A stretch of 64,000 nucleotides of DNA, from contig OX597817.1 in assembly GCA_951406725.2 (NCBI GenBank), forward strand, positions 45,074,001 to 45,138,000, read 5' to 3'. The translations under genes were made by a program, and so were the position numbers. Numbering within the stretch: the stretch's first letter is position 1; each line of letters begins with the position of its first letter. Below, in pieces: positions 20,100 through 54,749 of the stretch. Below the pieces are notes generated by a model. That model had not been told where the DNA came from. It was given only the letters and a program-made list of their open reading frames with translations, and searched no databases. This DNA comes from Octopus vulgaris. Taxonomy: Eukaryota.

Positions 20100-21308
20100 T
20101 GTTACGGTTGGCTAAGTGCATTTCGGGTTTAATTAGTGTAGTGTTTCTGGTGACCCACATCGTGGATATGGTTCCAGTATGTCTGGTGAAAATGTGACAG
20201 TCTTTTGTCTAATGGAGGACTAATGGGTTTTGGAATGACCTGTGACCTCGTGCGGTTGAGAAGAGGGTCAGGAGAATGTGAAAGAAAAGGGACAGATTAA
20301 GGGCTGAGAGCAAATAGAGATAGAGTATAAGCAGTAAGGGACGGATGGAGAGGCTAAGAGTCTGGCAGGCGATAGCGATAGAGTAAGAGCAGAAGGCAAA
20401 TAGAAAGGATAAGCAGTAAGGGACAGATAGAGAGGCTAAGGGATTGAGGCGATATAGATAGAGTAAGTAATCAGAGAGCAGTTAGAAAGGGTAGGAGCGA
20501 TATAGACAGAGGGAGATGAGGGAGTGGAAGTCAGGACAAGGAAGTGAGGTTCTGGGCAGTCGTTGAGCGGTCGTCGAGGAACATAGACGGATCTTGGAGT
20601 CGCTGGCTGGTCCTCGAAGAAGACAGTCGGATCCTGGAAGTCAGAGCGAGTAGATGGAATCTTAGAGGCGTTGGAATCTTAGGAGCAAGTTGGATGCGAG
20701 AAAGCTTGGCGGCACAGAAGGGAATTAGCAGTATTCAGAGGAATTAGCAGTATTGAGAGGAATGGGACACTGGCAGATTCAATTAGGAATTGAGGTATGT
20801 GTTTGTGCATTGATATGTGTCACGGTGTATTGAACAGTGAAAAGAACAGTCAAGGACTCTGTCGATGTGGTCGATAAAGGACATTGTGAATTGAAGAGTA
20901 AAGGACTTGTTGATTGTGATGTTTAGGAAGAGACTTTAAAAGAACTGTTGTCTTGGGACGTGTACTCTTGGATTGTTACATGATGTTGTATTATGCTTTG
21001 AGTTGTACTCTTGAAATGCTGTTGTATTATGTATTGAGTAGTTACGTGCATGCTTTGATGTATCTTGATGTTGTAACAATTGTAATTGTCGTATAAACTG
21101 TTGTTTGAATATAAGCCAGTGTTGCCATTTGTTGCCTTGCCTCTTTGGGTTGTATCTCGGGTTGTGCCTCTGTATCTCTGTGCTGCTGGGGTTGTGGTAG
21201 TTGTTGTATCTCTCTCCTCTCTCCTCCTCTTTGGGTTCCGTGGCGGAACTTGTGTGAGCCGTTCGGGACGAGCGACGACGGTGGGCGATTCCAGTCCGTT
21301 CCGTAACA
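20100..21308 (+). repeat. 5' LTR (1209 bp)
   Basis: Begins tgttacgg and ends ccgtaaca. Matches 23303-24504. Confidence 0.95.
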
Positions 21309-21310
21309 AC

Positions 21311-21328
21311 TGGTGTCAGAAGTGGGAT
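21311..21328 (+). promoter_or_regulatory. Primer-binding site, tRNA-Leu(CAA)-type
   Basis: TGGTGTCAGAAGTGGGAT, 2 nt after the LTR. Complementary to the tRNA-Leu 3' end ATCCCACTTCTGACACCA. Confidence 0.88.
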
Positions 21329-21366
21329 TGTCCTGATTGCTGCGTTTCGATCGGTTCTTTTTCGCT

Positions 21367-23295
21367 ATGGATTTGTCTGGCTGTCAGACCGGAGACGAGG
21401 GGATTTCGCTTGCCCTGATTGTGGAGATGTTAGGGGGCCAGATGGCGCAGACGGATGCGTTCATGGAAAGGATGGACGAGAGGCGACAGGGCCTGTGGGC
21501 AGATCAGCGGGAGCTTGAGGTTGCGGATGGGTCAGCTTTGAATGATCGGTGTTGGGCCGAGGATAGCGACGGTCCTGTGGACAGAGATTGCCCGTCGAAC
21601 GAAGCATCGAGGGAAACAGATAGTGAAGGAAGTGTTGCCGAAATCTGTGATGCTGGACCGGCTGTGTTTGCGGAACCTGGGCTGGTTGCCGAAATTTGTG
21701 ACGCTGTACCCAAGAATTCTTGTGATTTGGAACCCGTAGAGGGTGAAGTAACCAAAAGGCCTGTGGAAGGTGTTATGGCTGATGCTGTTGTTCCGTGTCT
21801 GGAGCCCTTGGCATCTCGACCCCTGTCTCTCGGAGCTCAGGACAAAGAGCTGGCGAGGTCTGGGGCGAATGTCGCCGAGTCCGAGGTTCCGGCTCTGTGT
21901 GTGATGGTCGCGGCAGGTGCTATGCCGTGTGCGGGTCCTTTGGTGTCTGGACCCCTGTCTCTTGGGGCCCAGAAGGACTGTATGGTTCCCACTGTGGAGA
22001 GGCCACAGGCGTGGATGGACTGGCGGCCGAGCGTGCGTGTTGTGAGGCCTGCGGTACGGAAGCTGGTGAGGAAAAGGACCAGGCCCGTTGACGAGGCGAG
22101 ACGGCTGCGAACGGTGGTGGGTCCACCGAGTCCAGGAAGACTGCTTCAGCGTTGGGTGAGCTTTGTGGTTGATGGTTGCTTGGGGCCGGTGGAGCCCGAC
22201 AGGCAGTGCCTAGTGAAAGCTCGATTGAGGGTCGGGTGGACCCTAGTGGAAGCAGAAGCTGGTGGAGCGCTAGCTGGGTCGGCCGATCTTTTGGAAGTGG
22301 CACAGGCGATTTGCAGAAGGCAAATTGAGGAATCGTGCCAGATGGCGAACCAGTGGTGGGGCCAGCTCTGCCGATACGGCAACGCAGTTGAAGGAGGTGG
22401 TGGCCCACGGATGCAGTTGAGGAAGCAGTCCGCAAGGAGTCGCTGGTGCTTTCTTGGCACTTGGGGGAGCTCTGTGTTCGATGGTTGCGTGGGGCTGGTG
22501 GAGCCCGACATGCAGTGCGGAGTAAGAGCTCAGTTGAGGGTCGGCTGGACCCTGGTGGAGGCAGAGTCTGACAGAGCGCTGGTTGGGTCGGCCGAGTTAT
22601 TGAAGGCTGCGCAGGCGATTTGCAGAGGGCAAATCGTGGAACTGCGCCGGACGGTAAACCAGCGGCGGGGTCAGTTCTGCCGGTGCAGAGATGAAGTTAA
22701 GGGAGTTCGTGGTCCGCTGATGCAGTTGCGGAAGAGGCAACTGTTGGTGAAAAGCGCAGGACGTTGGTCGCGAGGGTTGTTGGATGCTGGTCGCACGGAC
22801 CGGGCAGAACGTTTCGTCGACCAAGGCGGTTGTCGCTTGAGGAGGCAGCGAGGCCGGAAAAAGGTCTCAGTACAGCAGCGCAAGAGGAGATATCGGCGAC
22901 AGGTAACAGTGAAAGGACAGAATGGTCCCTGGTCGTCAGCGATAATTGCGCGGAATGGGGATGGTACAGCAAGGTGCTACGTGGGCTATAGAGCCCTGAG
23001 GAAGGTGGCCACTGTGAAGGATTGGCCGGACCCTGCCTGTGGAAGGGATTTGAGGAACTTCCTCGGACGGTGCGCCTATTGTGGGCGGCTAGTGGGAAGC
23101 CTGGCGGCGTTGGCGGAGGTGTTACCCAAGCCGCAGAGGGAAGGTGCCAACCTGTGGCTGGTGCTGAAGTGGTGGCCGTGGGAGGGAGACCCCCGGAGGA
23201 GAAACCACCCAAGGGGACCCCCAGCCCCTGGAGAGTCTGAGGCTCGGAGGTGCGAGTTTTGTTATGCTTTGTCGGGTCGACAGAAGCTTAGGTAG
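21367..23295 (+). CDS. Single uninterrupted ORF (642 aa from ATG 21367): collapsed gag/protease/RT-derived protein lacking the RT catalytic core
   Basis: Pol remnants DAGRTDRAERFVDQG, GPWSSAIIARNGDGTARCYVGYRAL, fused directly to KVATVKDWPDP..DLRNFLGRCAYCGRLV. No YxDD, RNase H or integrase core. Internal in-frame repeats. Confidence 0.75.
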   Translation: MDLSGCQTGDEGISLALIVEMLGGQMAQTDAFMERMDERRQGLWADQRELEVADGSALNDRCWAEDSDGPVDRDCPSNEASRETDSEGSVAEICDAGPAVFAEPGLVAEICDAVPKNSCDLEPVEGEVTKRPVEGVMADAVVPCLEPLASRPLSLGAQDKELARSGANVAESEVPALCVMVAAGAMPCAGPLVSGPLSLGAQKDCMVPTVERPQAWMDWRPSVRVVRPAVRKLVRKRTRPVDEARRLRTVVGPPSPGRLLQRWVSFVVDGCLGPVEPDRQCLVKARLRVGWTLVEAEAGGALAGSADLLEVAQAICRRQIEESCQMANQWWGQLCRYGNAVEGGGGPRMQLRKQSARSRWCFLGTWGSSVFDGCVGLVEPDMQCGVRAQLRVGWTLVEAESDRALVGSAELLKAAQAICRGQIVELRRTVNQRRGQFCRCRDEVKGVRGPLMQLRKRQLLVKSAGRWSRGLLDAGRTDRAERFVDQGGCRLRRQRGRKKVSVQQRKRRYRRQVTVKGQNGPWSSAIIARNGDGTARCYVGYRALRKVATVKDWPDPACGRDLRNFLGRCAYCGRLVGSLAALAEVLPKPQREGANLWLVLKWWPWEGDPRRRNHPRGPPAPGESEARRCEFCYALSGRQKLR

Positions 23296-23302
23296 GGGGT
23301 AG
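23290..23302 (+). promoter_or_regulatory. Polypurine tract
   Basis: aggtagggggtag immediately 5' of the 3' LTR; overlaps the ORF stop. Confidence 0.8.
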
Positions 23303-24504
23303 TGTTACGGTTGGCTAAGTGCATTTCGGGTTTAATTGGTGTAGTGTTTCTGGTGACCCACATCGTGGATATGGTTCCAGTATGTCTGGTGAAAATGTGA
23401 CAGTCTTTTGTCTAATGGAGGACTAATGGGTTTTGGAATGACCTGTGACCTCGTGCGGTTGAGAAGAGGGTCAGGAGAATGTGAAAGAAAAGGGACAGAT
23501 TAAGGGCTGAGAGCAAATAGAGATAGAGTATACGCAGTAAGGGACGGATGGAGAGGCTAAGAGTCTGGCAGGCGATAGTGATAGAGTAAGAGCAGAAGGC
23601 AAATAGAAAGGATAAGCAGTAAGGGACAGATAGAGAGGCTAAGGGATTGAGGCGATATAGATAGAGTAAGGAATCAGAGAGCAGTTAGAAAGGGTAGGAG
23701 CGATATAGACAGAGGGAGATGAGGGAGTGGAAGTCAGGACAAGGAAGTGAGGTTCTGGGCAGTCGTTGAGCGGTCGTCGAGGAACACAGACGGATCTTGG
23801 AGTCGCTGGCTGGTCCTCGAAGAAGACAGTCGGATCCTGGAAGTCAGAGCGAGTAGATGGAATCTTAGAGGCGTTGGAATCTTAGGAGCAAGTTGGATGC
23901 GAGAAAGCTTGGCGGCACAGAAGGGAATTAGCAGTATTCAGAGGAATTAGCAGTATTGAGAGGAATGGGACACTGGCAGATTCAATTAGGAATTGAGGTA
24001 TGTGTTTGTGCATTGATATGTGTCACGGTGTATTGAACAGTGAAAAGAACAGTCAAGGACTCTGTCGATGTGGTCGATAAAGGACATTGTGAATTGAAGA
24101 GTAAAGGACTTGTTGATTGTGATGTTTAGGAAGAGACTTTAAAAGAACTGTTGTCTTGGGACGTGTACTCTTGGATTGTTACATGATGTTGTATTATGCT
24201 TTGAGTTGTACTCTTGAAATGCTGTTGTATTATGTATTGAGTAGTTACGTGCATGCTTTGATGTATCTTGATGTTGTAACAATTGTAATTGTCGTATAAA
24301 CTGTTGTTTGAATATAAGCCAGTGTTGCCATTTGTTGCCTTGCCTCTTTGGGTTGTATCTCGGGTTGTGCCTCTGTATCTCTGTGCTGCTGGGGTTGTGG
24401 TAGTTGTTGTATCTCTCTCCTCTCTCCTCCTCTTTGGGTTCCGTGGCGAACTGGTGGGCCGTTCGGGGCGAGCGACGACGGGCGATCCAGTCCGTTCCGT
24501 AACA
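23303..24504 (+). repeat. 3' LTR (1202 bp)
   Basis: About 5 substitutions versus the 5' LTR over the first ~1140 bp, plus a cluster of small differences in the last ~60 bp. Confidence 0.95.
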
Positions 24505-25238: not shown

Positions 25239-25793
25239 TTGGATTGTCCAGAAGGTTCGTGCCGATTTTTTAAAAGAAAGAAGAAGATCAATAAATACTT
25301 GCCATTACATTTTTAATCAACCAAATATCAACCGATGTGTTACACAATGCGTCTCCATCTTTCTTTTAACTTGAAAATACCCTCTTCCCAGAATTGAGGT
25401 GGTTTCATGGCAACGTATCTTTTTACGTCATCCAAGGAATTGAAGTTTTTACCATTAAGCCTATTCTGCAGAGACCTGAATAAGTGGAAGTCCGAAATAG
25501 CAATATCTGGTGAATATGGAGAGTGGGGTAACACAGCTCAGCCGAGCTGCAGCAATTTTTGTCTGGTTCCCAAAGCATCAAGTGCCGAAAATGAACTTTC
25601 TTATCTTCTCATTTAAAGGGTTACAGAATTAACATGGGTTATACGAACATAAACCTACTTCCACGAAAAGACAGCTTAAACTGTGCTCTAACTGGAGGTG
25701 TAGTCAAATCCTATTTTCTGGACTCAACCATTTTCTAAAATAAGTCGAAATGTAAACTACTGTAAATCGGCACAAACTTTCCGGACGACCTAA
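25239..25793 (-). mobile_element. Internally deleted mariner transposon
   Basis: TIRs ttggattgtccagaaggttcgtgccgattt / aaatcggcacaaactttccggacgacctaa with TA on both sides. Minus ORF LPHSPYSPDIAISDFHLFRSLQN matches the mariner HPPYSPDLAPSD C-terminus. Confidence 0.9.
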
Positions 25794-29168: not shown

Positions 29169-29326
29169 CAACTTGAGATAGGGTTGTAAATGCAACCCTC
29201 CATGGGATAACATACATCCAATATACTGCTACCCAAAGTTAATACATAAATGTTAATGATTGCGATGCAATCAATTCATCTACTGTATTATATGTGCAAA
29301 GGTAAAATGATTTACCACAAATTATT

Positions 29327-29962
29327 AATACAAGATAAGAAAATGGAGAAATGCATCTAAATCAAATATCAATTACCAGATTATACTCAATCACATACTT
29401 TATTAAACCACCACATAAGAGACCCTAGGGTTAAATATAAAAAGCAGAACAAATCAGTGTACATAAAGGAATGTACATAAAAAAGTGTACATAAAAGAGT
29501 AATGTTGTATAATAAGTAGAATATATATAAAAGAGAATATAAATATAAGTAAATATAAATATAAGTATAGATTACATGTTACAGCTGTTTTGGCCATGTA
29601 GATAAGTATGTCTCATTTTACCAATATTAGCCTTTATCTATATATTGACCTACCATAAATGGCTAATATTGGTAAAATGAGGCATACTTATCTACATGGC
29701 CGAAACAGCTGTAAGATGTAATCTATACTTATATTAATATTTACTTATATTTATATTCTCTTTTATATATATTCTCCTTATTATACAACATTACTCTTTT
29801 ATGTACACTTTTTTATGTACATTCCTTTACGTACACTGATTTGTTCTGCTTTTTATATTTAATCCTAGAGTCTCTTATGTGGTGGTTTAATAAAGTATGT
29901 GATTGAGTATTATCTGGCAATTGACATTTGATGTAGATGTATTTCTCCATTTTCTTATCTTG

Positions 29963-29966
<4 letters not shown>
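29327..29966. repeat. Inverted repeat with ~310-bp arms and 17-bp spacer, in a (TA)n-flanked Penelope-like insert
   Basis: Arms 29327-29637 and 29655-29966 with scattered mismatches. Contains an HHR 3' half, GAAACAGCTGTA (29702-29713). Confidence 0.92.
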
Positions 29967-30023
<57 letters not shown>

Positions 30024-34525: not shown

Positions 34526-34989
34526 AGGAAGTAAAAAAAGAACGAGAAAATAATGTTGGAATGGGATATTAGTAGGATATTAAATGGTCAAGTGCCCTAA
34601 AGGTGACTTGTTGTGGATGGTAATAATGATTGAATTCTTGAGATATCCCTTTTGAATGTATTGTTTATAATAATTGCGTAGGTGTTATTCTAGACTGCAG
34701 TTGTGGTAAAGTAAGGAAAGAGGTTGTAGAGATGAAGAAGAAGACGAAGAAGGAGACAGAGAATAAGAGAGAAAATAATAAGATAAAGCAGGATGGTAGG
34801 ATAGTAGTAGGATGTTAAATGGTCAAGTGACCTTAAAGTGACTCGTTGTTGATTACAGCAGTGATTGGGACTGTTTTTAATGAATTCTTGGGTATCTCTT
34901 ATGAATGTATCATTTTTAATATTTGATTGTGTGATATTCTAAGGTCGTGGTGGAAATGTCATTTGTTGTAGATACATTTAGAAGGGGTC

Positions 34990-35530
34990 TCTACATAGAA
35001 AATAACTGGAAGAGACACCTGGATGACTGTTTCATTATTTGGCATGAAAGTATAGAGAGACTTAAAAAATGTCAATCACTTATGGAATATAGCCATCAAC
35101 AACTTCCCTTCCTCGACATCCTCATTAAGAAATCTAACAACGTAAAAGAAACAGATATATACTATAAGCCCACGGACATCAAGGAATATGTAATGTTCAT
35201 CTTATGCCACCCCAGACACACCATATTGAATATCCCCTTCAACCTAGCAAAAAGGATATGTACTATATATTTCTTTACTCTCATCAGCAGGAACTACCCA
35301 CCTTCACTAATTGACCTATGCTCTCAACCTGCCCTACAACTCAACATCCACGAACTCACACATCCCAAATTAAAGAAGGATTTACAACCAAAAGCCCTAC
35401 CATACATCTCCATTCACAACCCTCTTAACAATGAAGCCTTCGACACCATCCCTCAAAACATTCCCCTGCTAAAAAAGGACCACAGAATGAACTTAATCCT
35501 CTAAACACACACCATCATAAAAAGCAAGAG
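34990..35530 (+). pseudogene. Penelope-like element reverse transcriptase fragment
   Basis: WKRHLDDCFIIW, LPFLDILI, TDIYYKPTD and CHPRH..NIPFNLAKRI are PLE RT and thumb motifs. Internal deletions; YxDD changed to HLDD. Confidence 0.88.
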
Positions 35531-46427: not shown

Positions 46428-47344
46428 CGTATTACATATAAGGTAACTAAATAACCTCTATGTTTTACGTTCTAGAATCTTCGTTTCTTATATGTCACAA
46501 ACTGCATGTTTGTAAAAAATGATCATACCTTATTCATTATACCTCATAAAGCCACAATATTAGAGACCCACTCCAAATTTTTTTTTGACCTGGTTGAGAT
46601 TAAATAATATAAATGTTTTCCTATTGTCTTTACGCGAGGCAAAAGACTATTCGTGAAACGGAGTCGTTTTTACTGTACAGCAACCACAGCGGTTAGCATT
46701 CATTTTAATCCATTTCGATTTGAGCATCATGAAACGAAGTGACCTGCTCACGAACGAAACGTCCCCCTCATCCTGTATTCAGCTTCATGGCATTGCTCTC
46801 GTGCGTCCGTGAGAAGAATATTAATTATAAAACGCTCTTGGGCCACTATTCCACAATAATTATTTCACTAAGTTTATACCACCAGTAGTTTTCAAACTTT
46901 TACAATTATTTTATTAATCGTATCTTTCTCTTCGTTCTTTTATTGATTTCTATAAATATATTTAGATATTAGTTTTTATGTAATCACCTACCGATTTTTC
47001 CCTTAATTACTGTTTTTATTTATCTTATATATATTGTCGTGTTTATTTATTTTGATAATTTCGTATTTCTATTGTCAAGATTTCTTCTTATTTTTCTAAA
47101 ATTCTTAACTTTTTAAAACGTCTATAATGACATAATGACTACATTTATACTTTATCCATTTAGTACAAAATTCCGCCGATTGCTAAACAAACGTTAAATT
47201 ATTGCTTAGCAATTATTCTCCAATTTAACTTGTTTGTTTCTTAATTTCTGTGATTTTCTTATTTGTCTGAGTATTTGTTTAAGATACACCCCCTGATTGC
47301 ACTCATGTACATACAATACACAGACAGAAATATACGTAAATGCG

Positions 47345-47575
47345 TGTGTATATGTGTGTGCGTTTATGTATGTGTACAGGACGTCACCAGGTGTGCAAAC
47401 AACATGAAATTGGTTGACAAACGAGTTGAGTACATAAACAACGAGAGAAACTATGGAAAACAAGACAAGATACATACATATATATGTATATGTATTATAT
47501 ATATGTACGTATGCGTGTATATTTATATGTATGTAACTGTGCTTATATGTATATGCATATATATCTATATCTATC

Positions 47576-47623
<48 letters not shown>

Positions 47624-47854
47624 GATAGATATAGATATATATGCATATACATATAAGCACAGTTACATACATATAAATATACACGCATACGTACATATAT
47701 ATAATACATATACATATATATGTATGTATCTTGTCTTGTTTTCCATAGTTTCTCTCGTTGTTTATGTACTCAACTCGTTTGTCAACCAATTTCATGTTGT
47801 TTGCACACCTGGTGACGTCCTGTACACATACATAAACGCACACACATATACACA
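47345..47854. repeat. Perfect 510-bp palindrome centred on (TA)18
   Basis: The arms are exact reverse complements; the ORF track gives the same peptide on both strands (47263+ and 47571-). Confidence 0.92.
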
Positions 47855-48117
47855 TACATATTATTTATTATCATTATTTAATTGAACGCCACGCATACAT
47901 TTCCTAGTAAATTTATCTTCACCTTTATCATGCGATTCTACTCTATACTCTTTTCTTCCTGCATCCCTCTCTACCTTCACAAGCCCTTATTCCGATTTTC
48001 CCATAAAATTATAGCAACAATTTTAAAATTCTTTGTGATCCAAAACACCGTTATATATTTACTTTTCTCTTTGGAGTTCTTGTACTACTCCTTCCACTTG
48101 GCACTCCGCTGGTTAAT

Positions 48118-53869: not shown

Positions 53870-54330
53870 ACGCTGATAGCTTAGGAGTAAAATTTAGGAT
53901 TTCTCGTTTTTCTGTTAATCGATTTTGATAAAACTTTTCTCAGCTGGTTTGCACACTATGGCAACACTATTGTTATGCTTTTATTATTCTATGTAACGTC
54001 ATTTCTTTTTTATTTCAAATTCATGTTTTTGGGTGAACCGCGCTAACTGTCTCTCTCCCCCTTAATAGCAGTAGGTCATGGAAAAGACAACAATGAAGAA
54101 AAGTCTGTTATCATCAAGGTAAGTTCTAAAGGCACCACTCTTCATGTTATTGCGGAGAAATTAGGACGCCGTGTGGACACTGCTAAACGGTTTCTGAAGG
54201 ACCCTTCGCCAAGGAGGAGACGATCCGATTGTGGGACCTCGAAGACTGCGACAGCAAGAAATTTAAGTAATATTAGCTGTAAGTTCCGTGAGAAACCTGG
54301 ACAAACCAGCAAAGCCATTTTACCGCATCC
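53870..54330 (+). mobile_element. Tc1-like transposon 5' fragment (HTH region)
   Basis: IAEKLGRRVDTAKRFLKDPSPRRRRSDCG..TARNL..I..KFREKPGQTSKAI resembles the Tc1 paired-like DNA-binding region. Confidence 0.55.
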
Positions 54331-54749
54331 GGACTTCCTCGTTTTCCCCAAACCAACAGAAATTGCATCCTCAGGACCATGCTATAACCCCTTACACTGC
54401 CTCCTTTAACGCACCCTCACAGGCGTTTGAGATTTCAATGGGCCGAAAAGTACATGACGTTAGACCCTTCACGGACGTGACGGTTAGGAAAATGGTTGGG
54501 TTTGTGTTGAAGATGAGTGTCACCAACGTTGAGTACATCAACACTAGGGTGGAGAAATCGTGTTGTAGGCTGATATCATTGAGTACAGACATGTAGGCCC
54601 AATCAGGGTGTCTGAAGGGTTAAAGAAGTGACAGAGCAGGTACCTACTACAATCTCCCAAAGTAGGTCTTGGATTCCTGGGTAGATGGTATACCGCTGTC
54701 ACTTCTAAGGAGTCTCGTATTGATGCATGACAACACTTTCCACCCCCAA

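Follow-up and report, generated by a model that had tools for sequence, protein, structure and literature searches.

According to the papers concerned, ADAR-type A>G changes have been fixed as dense hyper-editing in avian retroviruses, namely Rous-associated virus as well as avian leukosis virus (PMC12925331), and APOBEC leaves clusters of G-to-A changes in the LTR elements of vertebrates, which are reported to be absent from 19 invertebrate genomes (PMC4866542). The text of the latter study mentions A-to-G once, as a filter, and does not mention ADAR. Vertebrate non-LTR elements differ in composition within one host while their resident copies decay toward AT, and that work favours selection (10.1101/788562). 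An exceptionally high hyper-editing signal has been described in octopus (PMC5625713), and in squid the edits cluster and favour certain neighbours (PMC4384741). Across metazoans a 5' G is unfavourable to ADARs, whereas their 3' preference is weaker and varies (PMC5625713, PMC9989829). Our literature search, which covered mainly openly available papers at the level of titles and abstracts, found no report of an ADAR-like drift passed down within any LTR family of an invertebrate, and none of a frame that is kept open without constraint on its protein. Here we describe an LTR element in a 64,000-nucleotide stretch of Octopus vulgaris DNA (the window) together with its family. The class of this element is ordinary, its substitution signature is real and unusual, and the cause of the signature is not settled.

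The element spans 20100-24504 and is a young, non-autonomous member of Ty3/Gypsy, with a (TA)n tract on both flanks and 5' and 3' LTRs that are 98.7% identical, differing by 7 substitutions and 7 gap columns (Table 1). Its class is given by paired TG...CA LTRs, a primer binding site (PBS), a polypurine tract (PPT) and the pol order of a long relative, L032, and its non-autonomous state by the lack of any intact enzyme domain, recent spread to multiple loci and cis signals that are those of the long element. The PBS presumably pairs with tRNA-Leu. A pattern for the complementary tRNA 3' end matched 67 places in the genome, and three of four tested were Rfam tRNAs; ARAGORN called none of four such candidates (0/4). 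Matches to this pattern also form arrays at G000:C29:8.82 Mb and C4:81.21 Mb, with spacings of about 110 bp and exactly 542 bp. A Pfam search with the 642-residue ORF protein gave no match, and its best ESM Atlas matches (0.76 and 0.75) were RT clusters, which is a lead only. Comparison of the ORF with L032 using tblastn gave 40-59% amino-acid identity, and residues 372-552 and 546-586 match L032 3253-3861 and 4303-4425, respectively. Both units of the internal duplication align to a single L032 stretch, and several family copies lack one unit through in-frame deletions of 258, 276 and 309 nt. One of the two units (together window 22152-22737) is absent in L041, L037, L040, L043, L048 and L055; L041 sits within the clade of the long form, therefore loss happened repeatedly, likely via template switching. 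Elsewhere in the window there are two long, near-perfect inverted repeats, at 47340-47859 (260-nt arms, 99%, no spacer) and at 29323-29970 (313-nt arms, 95%), which are possibly assembly artefacts or fold-back elements. We take 34935-35504, 54047-54409 and about 25300-25700 to be decayed mobile-element remnants, comprising a frame that resembles RT and stretches that resemble transposase; a weak match of the first of these to DUF2982 was all that Pfam returned.

Table 1. Features of the LTR element in window coordinates.
Feature	Position	Strand	Details
5' LTR	20100..21308	+	1209 bp; TGT...ACA; G 0.32 / C 0.13
Purine-rich tandem unit	20294..20490	+	82-bp unit, 2.4 copies; inside LTR
PBS	21311..21328	+	complementary to 3' end of host tRNA
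ORF	21367..23295	+	642 aa, ATG to TAG; patchwork of gag/pol remnants
gag N-terminus remnant	21385..21531	+	residues 7-55; 41% identity to L032 gag ORF, E 8e-6
Internal duplication, first unit	22152..22428	+	309-bp spacing; from pol between protease and RT
Internal duplication, second unit	22461..22737	+	79% identical to first unit
RT N-terminus and pre-RNase H remnants	22807..23124	+	RT catalytic core between absent
PPT	23290..23302	+	contains ORF stop codon
3' LTR	23303..24504	+	1202 bp

Searching the genome (2.8 Gb, 227 contigs) with the internal region returned 115 candidates, and nearly all of the 40 that were scored were full length, with 88-97% identity. Exact patterns identified 65 LTR-PBS and 50 PPT-LTR junctions, one of the latter being that of L032, and the LTR pairs of family copies were up to 99.9% identical. 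L032, which was found as a PBS match, measures 6.7 kb and has LTRs of 98% identity. Its coding order is gag with a zinc knuckle followed by protease-RT-RNase H-integrase, and a single in-frame stop interrupts the integrase part. It is only about 69% identical to the window element over 1051 aligned bases and is therefore a relative and not its direct parent. The PBS, the PPT and the LTR ends are common to the short members and to L032 and, judging from sequence, the short element was probably copied in trans by long gag-pol members with these same signals. Flanks of the 29 copies with a clear 3' end, L032 included, revealed that ATAT/(TA)n microsatellites are strongly preferred as insertion targets. 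Between copies the LTRs are 70-90% alike, as against 88-97% for the internal regions, and LTR and internal neighbours differ, which suggests fast LTR turnover or recombination. Two further arrangements were seen: L015/L016 (G000:C1:22.48 Mb) is a tandem pair of internal regions with the middle LTR in common, and a MITE-like repeat of ~780 bp with ~300-bp inverted arms, for which there are 4884 candidates, was observed at L043 (G000:C4:58.31 Mb) as well as at the other places scored, about 40 in number.

The preliminary description of this locus proposed ADAR hyper-editing of the ORF, fixed in DNA by reverse transcription. The composition from which it argued was confirmed: G outnumbers C by 27 to 12 in 22021-22080, the + strand of the ORF is G-skewed throughout (G 0.388, C 0.208; G above C in 31/32 sixty-base bins) and the window outside it is unskewed (G 10081, C 9673). 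The residue counts of 1 His, 6 Tyr and 18 Trp were also correct, with Trp at the expectation from base composition (20.8 +/- 4.3, 2000 shuffles) and His below it (11.4 +/- 3.4). Conserved pol motifs had been read as altered by A>G, and codon comparison with L032 bore this out for VDYR>VGYR, SPW>GPW, YYRR>YCGR and KK>NG but not for the overall direction, with G>A nearly equal (four motif blocks, 43 differences, 11 A>G, 9 G>A). The reading of TRF>ARC as A>G failed, with ARC already present in L032 and F>C a change that A>G cannot produce; among homologs TRF is present in 54/111 and ARC in 0/111. Likewise, the LTR repeat said to differ only by A/G does so in a core of ~35 nt, where the differences run both ways (G against A in the second unit at two sites, the reverse at one), but the full 82-bp units also contain other changes and gaps. 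An equally G-rich autonomous parent had been named as evidence against the proposal, and the young long relative L032 is nearly as G-rich (0.35 vs 0.39). Nor was the pairwise spectrum against it dominated by A>G (72 changes each for A>G and G>A, with 49 T>C and 36 C>T); from these two results we conclude that the window copy is not specially edited. A burst of hyper-editing in the window copy was rejected, since its 76 derived bases include fewer A>G (15) than G>A (19), along with 11 T>C, 9 T>G and 8 C>T.

G-richness is a trait of the whole lineage and not of the window copy. Fourfold sites of L032 contain G 212, C 104, A 101 and T 99, and this twofold excess of G over C requires a strand-asymmetric process. 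In the pol/RT region its share of G/V/R/C/W residues is the highest, above 120/120 homologs, and the sense strand of the short members is far more G-rich than that of other Gypsy families in the genome. Old long copies of the family are more A-rich. In five other young Gypsy groups (L107-L133, L172-L211), many with long open pol frames, fourfold bias was A 0.50, A 0.45, T 0.41 and, in two, balanced, so that fourfold composition is family-specific within one host (A 0.50, T 0.41 or G 0.42). Beyond this genome, 38 metagenome relatives were found, and a clear fourfold G-over-C skew in 3 of the 34 with a scorable frame means that such a skew is uncommon but not unique.

Changes passed on through copying were separated from those made after insertion, and this showed that the family has gained inherited, strand-asymmetric A>G on the sense strand, whereas post-insertion changes lack the asymmetry. 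For the non-coding LTRs we used unique sites in 686 well-aligned columns of 28 elements, with ten pairs excluded by name (too divergent, short, long-element, tandem duplicates) besides those failing the length and identity filters. Before insertion A>G was 23/171 and T>C 9/189 (p=0.005), and after insertion 6/171 and 8/189, when G>A (22) and C>T (13) were the main changes; the A>G:G>A ratio moved from 23:13 to 5:20 (p=0.0015). For the internal region (58 copies, three near-duplicates excluded), dropping 84 of 334 branch events whose direction was ambiguous left 250 on internal branches, including 71 A>G against 28 T>C (p=5e-7) as well as 54 G>A and 27 C>T, as compared with A>G 46, T>C 53, G>A 131 and C>T 81 among 496 private changes. 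The preliminary description had named a symmetric A>G/T>C spectrum as evidence against editing, and in the inherited changes A>G instead exceeded T>C. At unique outgroup-polarised sites of 36 crown copies the excess was smaller (36/332 vs 24/385, p=0.03) and it was lost once bases also seen in the outgroup were removed (13 vs 17), therefore recombination or mis-polarising may contribute.

The long element gave the same direction. On the L032 branch, polarised by older long copies, A>G was 191/1018 (18.8%), T>C 93/865 (10.8%; p=1e-6), G>A 66/1166 (5.7%) and C>T 43/776 (5.5%), and with distant outgroups A>G was 142/830 against T>C 66/735. The window copy compared with older long copies likewise showed more A>G (77/216) than T>C (33/175; p=3e-4), while private changes of old long copies were symmetric (A>G 65/4766 vs T>C 61/4507; G>A 215/6414 vs C>T 159/4330). 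In the short family T>G also exceeded A>C (24 vs 4 on internal branches, 13 vs 2 at unique sites), as against 19 vs 17 on the L032 branch. No APOBEC-type sense G>A excess was present, the per-base G>A/C>T ratio being 1.07 on internal branches and the two rates 5.7% and 5.5% on the L032 branch, and A>G that arose in parallel at identical sites of the two lineages was not significant (21/63 vs 23/107, p=0.10). Substitution models put the A>G rate at about 2.5 times T>C, to which we give little weight because they assume stationarity.

A test of neighbour context, in which a lack of ADAR bias had been expected to speak against editing, revealed that inherited A>G avoids a 5' G, as ADAR does. Pooled over three data sets the odds ratio for A>G after G was 0.30 (p=6e-7), composed of 5/69 after G vs 18/102 after other bases in LTRs, 8/171 vs 28/161 in the internal region and, on the L032 branch at third codon positions, 12/61 vs 67/161, while the strand mirror (T>C before C) had a pooled odds ratio of 1.04 and T>C after G one of 0.72 (p=0.26). 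Taking all A>G on the L032 branch, the rate was 0.10 after G and 0.19-0.30 after other bases (p=2e-7); it was also higher before G (0.26 vs 0.14-0.16 otherwise, p=5e-5), and at codon position 2, with identical amino-acid changes, NAG changed in 32/120 and NAA in 6/63. This 3' G enrichment was seen on the L032 branch only and was absent in the LTR and both internal-region data sets. Post-insertion A>G among private changes of old long copies did not avoid a 5' G, nor was there an effect on the long branch of the window copy itself (29/86 vs 48/130, p=0.67), where 36% of adenosines are altered and the rule may be missing through change of the neighbours too. Some other changes were also lower after G, namely T>C at third codon positions on the L032 branch (9/61 vs 49/171, p=0.04) and inherited G>A in the short-family internal branches and in the data from other Gypsy families.

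Other features of ADAR hyper-editing were looked for in the family. No copy tested contained dense A>G clusters, none having a run above 6 A>G, which removes the hyper-editing part of the original claim. An initial clustering test had been significant for most change types, and we used label shuffling, under which close A>G pairs were at expectation (12 vs 8.2, p=0.16; 19 vs 18.8; and, on the L032 branch, 236 vs 228). The element has no inverted repeat above 27 nt, and pairing of the changed adenosines was not raised (0.69 vs 0.64 unpaired, p=0.08); fold z-scores were -0.26 and -2.48, from 20 shuffles only. A_deamin matches were found at four places in the genome.

Sparse ADAR editing of the element RNA, fixed by reverse transcription, is the explanation of the family's A>G gain that we favour, although tentatively and with slightly less than even confidence. 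Host ADAR would edit scattered adenosines in the RNA, a few sites at a time, and RT would then fix each inosine as G in DNA, so that the changes would arise at the RNA or reverse-transcription step and ADAR would account for the surplus of A>G relative to T>C, against a background of ordinary RT error; the two may both be acting. The predicted duplex substrate would most likely be sense-antisense pairing because no long internal hairpin exists. Against ADAR stand the absence of clustering and of a long duplex, together with the T>G excess and, on the L032 branch, a T>C that is twice C>T, neither of which ADAR explains. Further points against it are the loss of the internal excess without recurrent sites, the missing 5' G effect on the window copy's own long branch, the dips of T>C and G>A after G, the restriction of 3' G enrichment to L032 and the lack of asymmetry in four other Gypsy families, one of them well powered. 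What survives of the earlier proposal that RNA edits accumulated over cycles of retrotransposition is a sense A>G gain that is family-wide and includes long elements, without hyper-editing, and for which ADAR is a plausible cause not separated from RT error.

The second account is that the family's own RT wrongly places dG opposite dT while making the plus strand (sense A>G) and opposite rU while making the minus strand (sense T>C), which would push the sense strand toward G with no host enzyme involved. We consider it a serious competitor, somewhat less likely than ADAR. It accommodates several results directly, as the L032 branch has A>G and T>C at higher rates than either G>A or C>T, T>G is in excess in the short family, composition differs by family within one host and A>G clusters are absent. 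Furthermore, among the second-strand errors of RTs tested in vitro, those of the dA>dG type form the largest class (PMC6009661). However, the same study describes second-strand errors in vitro, made by three or four RTs and by Bst polymerases, as having no context bias (PMC6009661), so that these errors fit the A>G direction found here but not the neighbour rule, with its odds ratio of 0.30 against 1.04 for the mirror. A test for plus-strand errors in young LTR pairs gave 0 A>G among just 20 differences. Other Gypsy families in the host also bear on this account: no A>G asymmetry was seen in four of them, of which only F4 is well powered (146 shared events, compared with 33, 15 and 0 in F1, F2 and F3), and F4, which has its own RT, showed A>G equal to T>C (38/1180 vs 20/596).

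Selection among copies for a G- or GC-rich, A-poor transcript, through transcription, export or escape from silencing, is unlikely as the cause. It would agree with an asymmetry confined to changes passed via active lineages and with the rise of all A/T>G/C classes on the L032 branch relative to private decay; a similar argument has been made for non-LTR elements (10.1101/788562), and selection does act on the element RNA, the frame being conserved. However, C>G was not favoured (1/776 on the L032 branch), and selection on G content would not be expected to produce a neighbour rule under which an A that follows G is spared, whether the sequence is coding or not. A polarising artefact, in which old copies decay by G>A and recombination spreads alleles such that A>G only looks derived, is very improbable, since despite the loss of the internal excess without recurrent sites (13 vs 17), the 84/334 direction-ambiguous events and the greater A-richness of old long copies, decay affects the two strands alike (215/6414 for G>A, 159/4330 for C>T) and is centred on CpG, not after A, the L032 result survives distant outgroups (142/830 vs 66/735), and fourfold G at twice C requires a strand-asymmetric process.

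The short members hold one frame of 620-650 codons open from PBS to PPT, and the preliminary description suggested that editing, by converting stops to TGG, could help to keep it open. At none of the 18 Trp codons is a stop the common state or the basal one, and stops at these codons occur in 1-2 copies; the one exception lies at residue 632, a frameshift-prone codon in the tail. As no Trp derives from a stop, the frame is kept open by selection on the frame and not by editing. Of 53 copies longer than 1.5 kb, 25 keep an ORF that covers 90% or more of the span. Shuffled versions of the window ORF contain 25 stops on average. Shared indels are multiples of three in 27/32 cases, four of the remaining five pairing to in-frame sums, compared with 27/57 for private indels, and inherited stops number 1 vs 6.5 expected (p=0.024). 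Inherited dN/dS is about 0.87 and not different from 1, so the reading frame is under selection but the protein sequence is not detectably so. A domesticated gag/pol gene was also considered and was ruled out by this dN/dS value, the multi-copy state and the position within paired LTRs. An open but unconstrained frame is a second oddity of the family, in which something selects for translation itself, and our guess at the reason is that translation stabilises the RNA.

A broader statement is that host ADAR has been a standing heritable mutagen of this Gypsy lineage, turning approximately one fifth to one third of adenosines into G and recoding its polymerase toward Arg, Gly and Val beyond 120 homologs, such that the family would be a fossil record of germline editing; we regard this as possible but less probable than the sparse editing described above. 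RNA edits are normally not inherited, and if ADAR is responsible then DNA copies that record edits would mean that editing acts in the germline and steers the evolution of an element, as a mirror of vertebrate APOBEC G-to-A editing. If RT is the cause, the family would be a clear example from nature of strand composition driven by a polymerase. The split of LTR pairs into changes before and after insertion makes the question testable in any genome.

Compared with known systems, the window element is like other non-autonomous Ty3/Gypsy derivatives in its TG...CA LTRs, tRNA PBS and PPT, but its family differs from ordinary ones in a conserved open frame at dN/dS near 1 and a far G-richer sense strand. 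With vertebrate non-LTR elements it shares a family-specific composition (10.1101/788562), to which it adds a direction and a neighbour rule. APOBEC editing is likewise strand-biased, tied to reverse transcription and tested against the complementary change; however, it runs in the opposite direction and is defined by at least 10 clustered changes per pair (PMC4866542). As is proposed for the window family, sense A>G in avian retroviruses is carried into DNA by reverse transcription, and nearly 50% of adenosines are reported as changed in U3 or an inverted-repeat region (PMC12925331), whereas in the window family the changes are dispersed and unclustered, come without a long duplex and have accumulated along an endogenous lineage.
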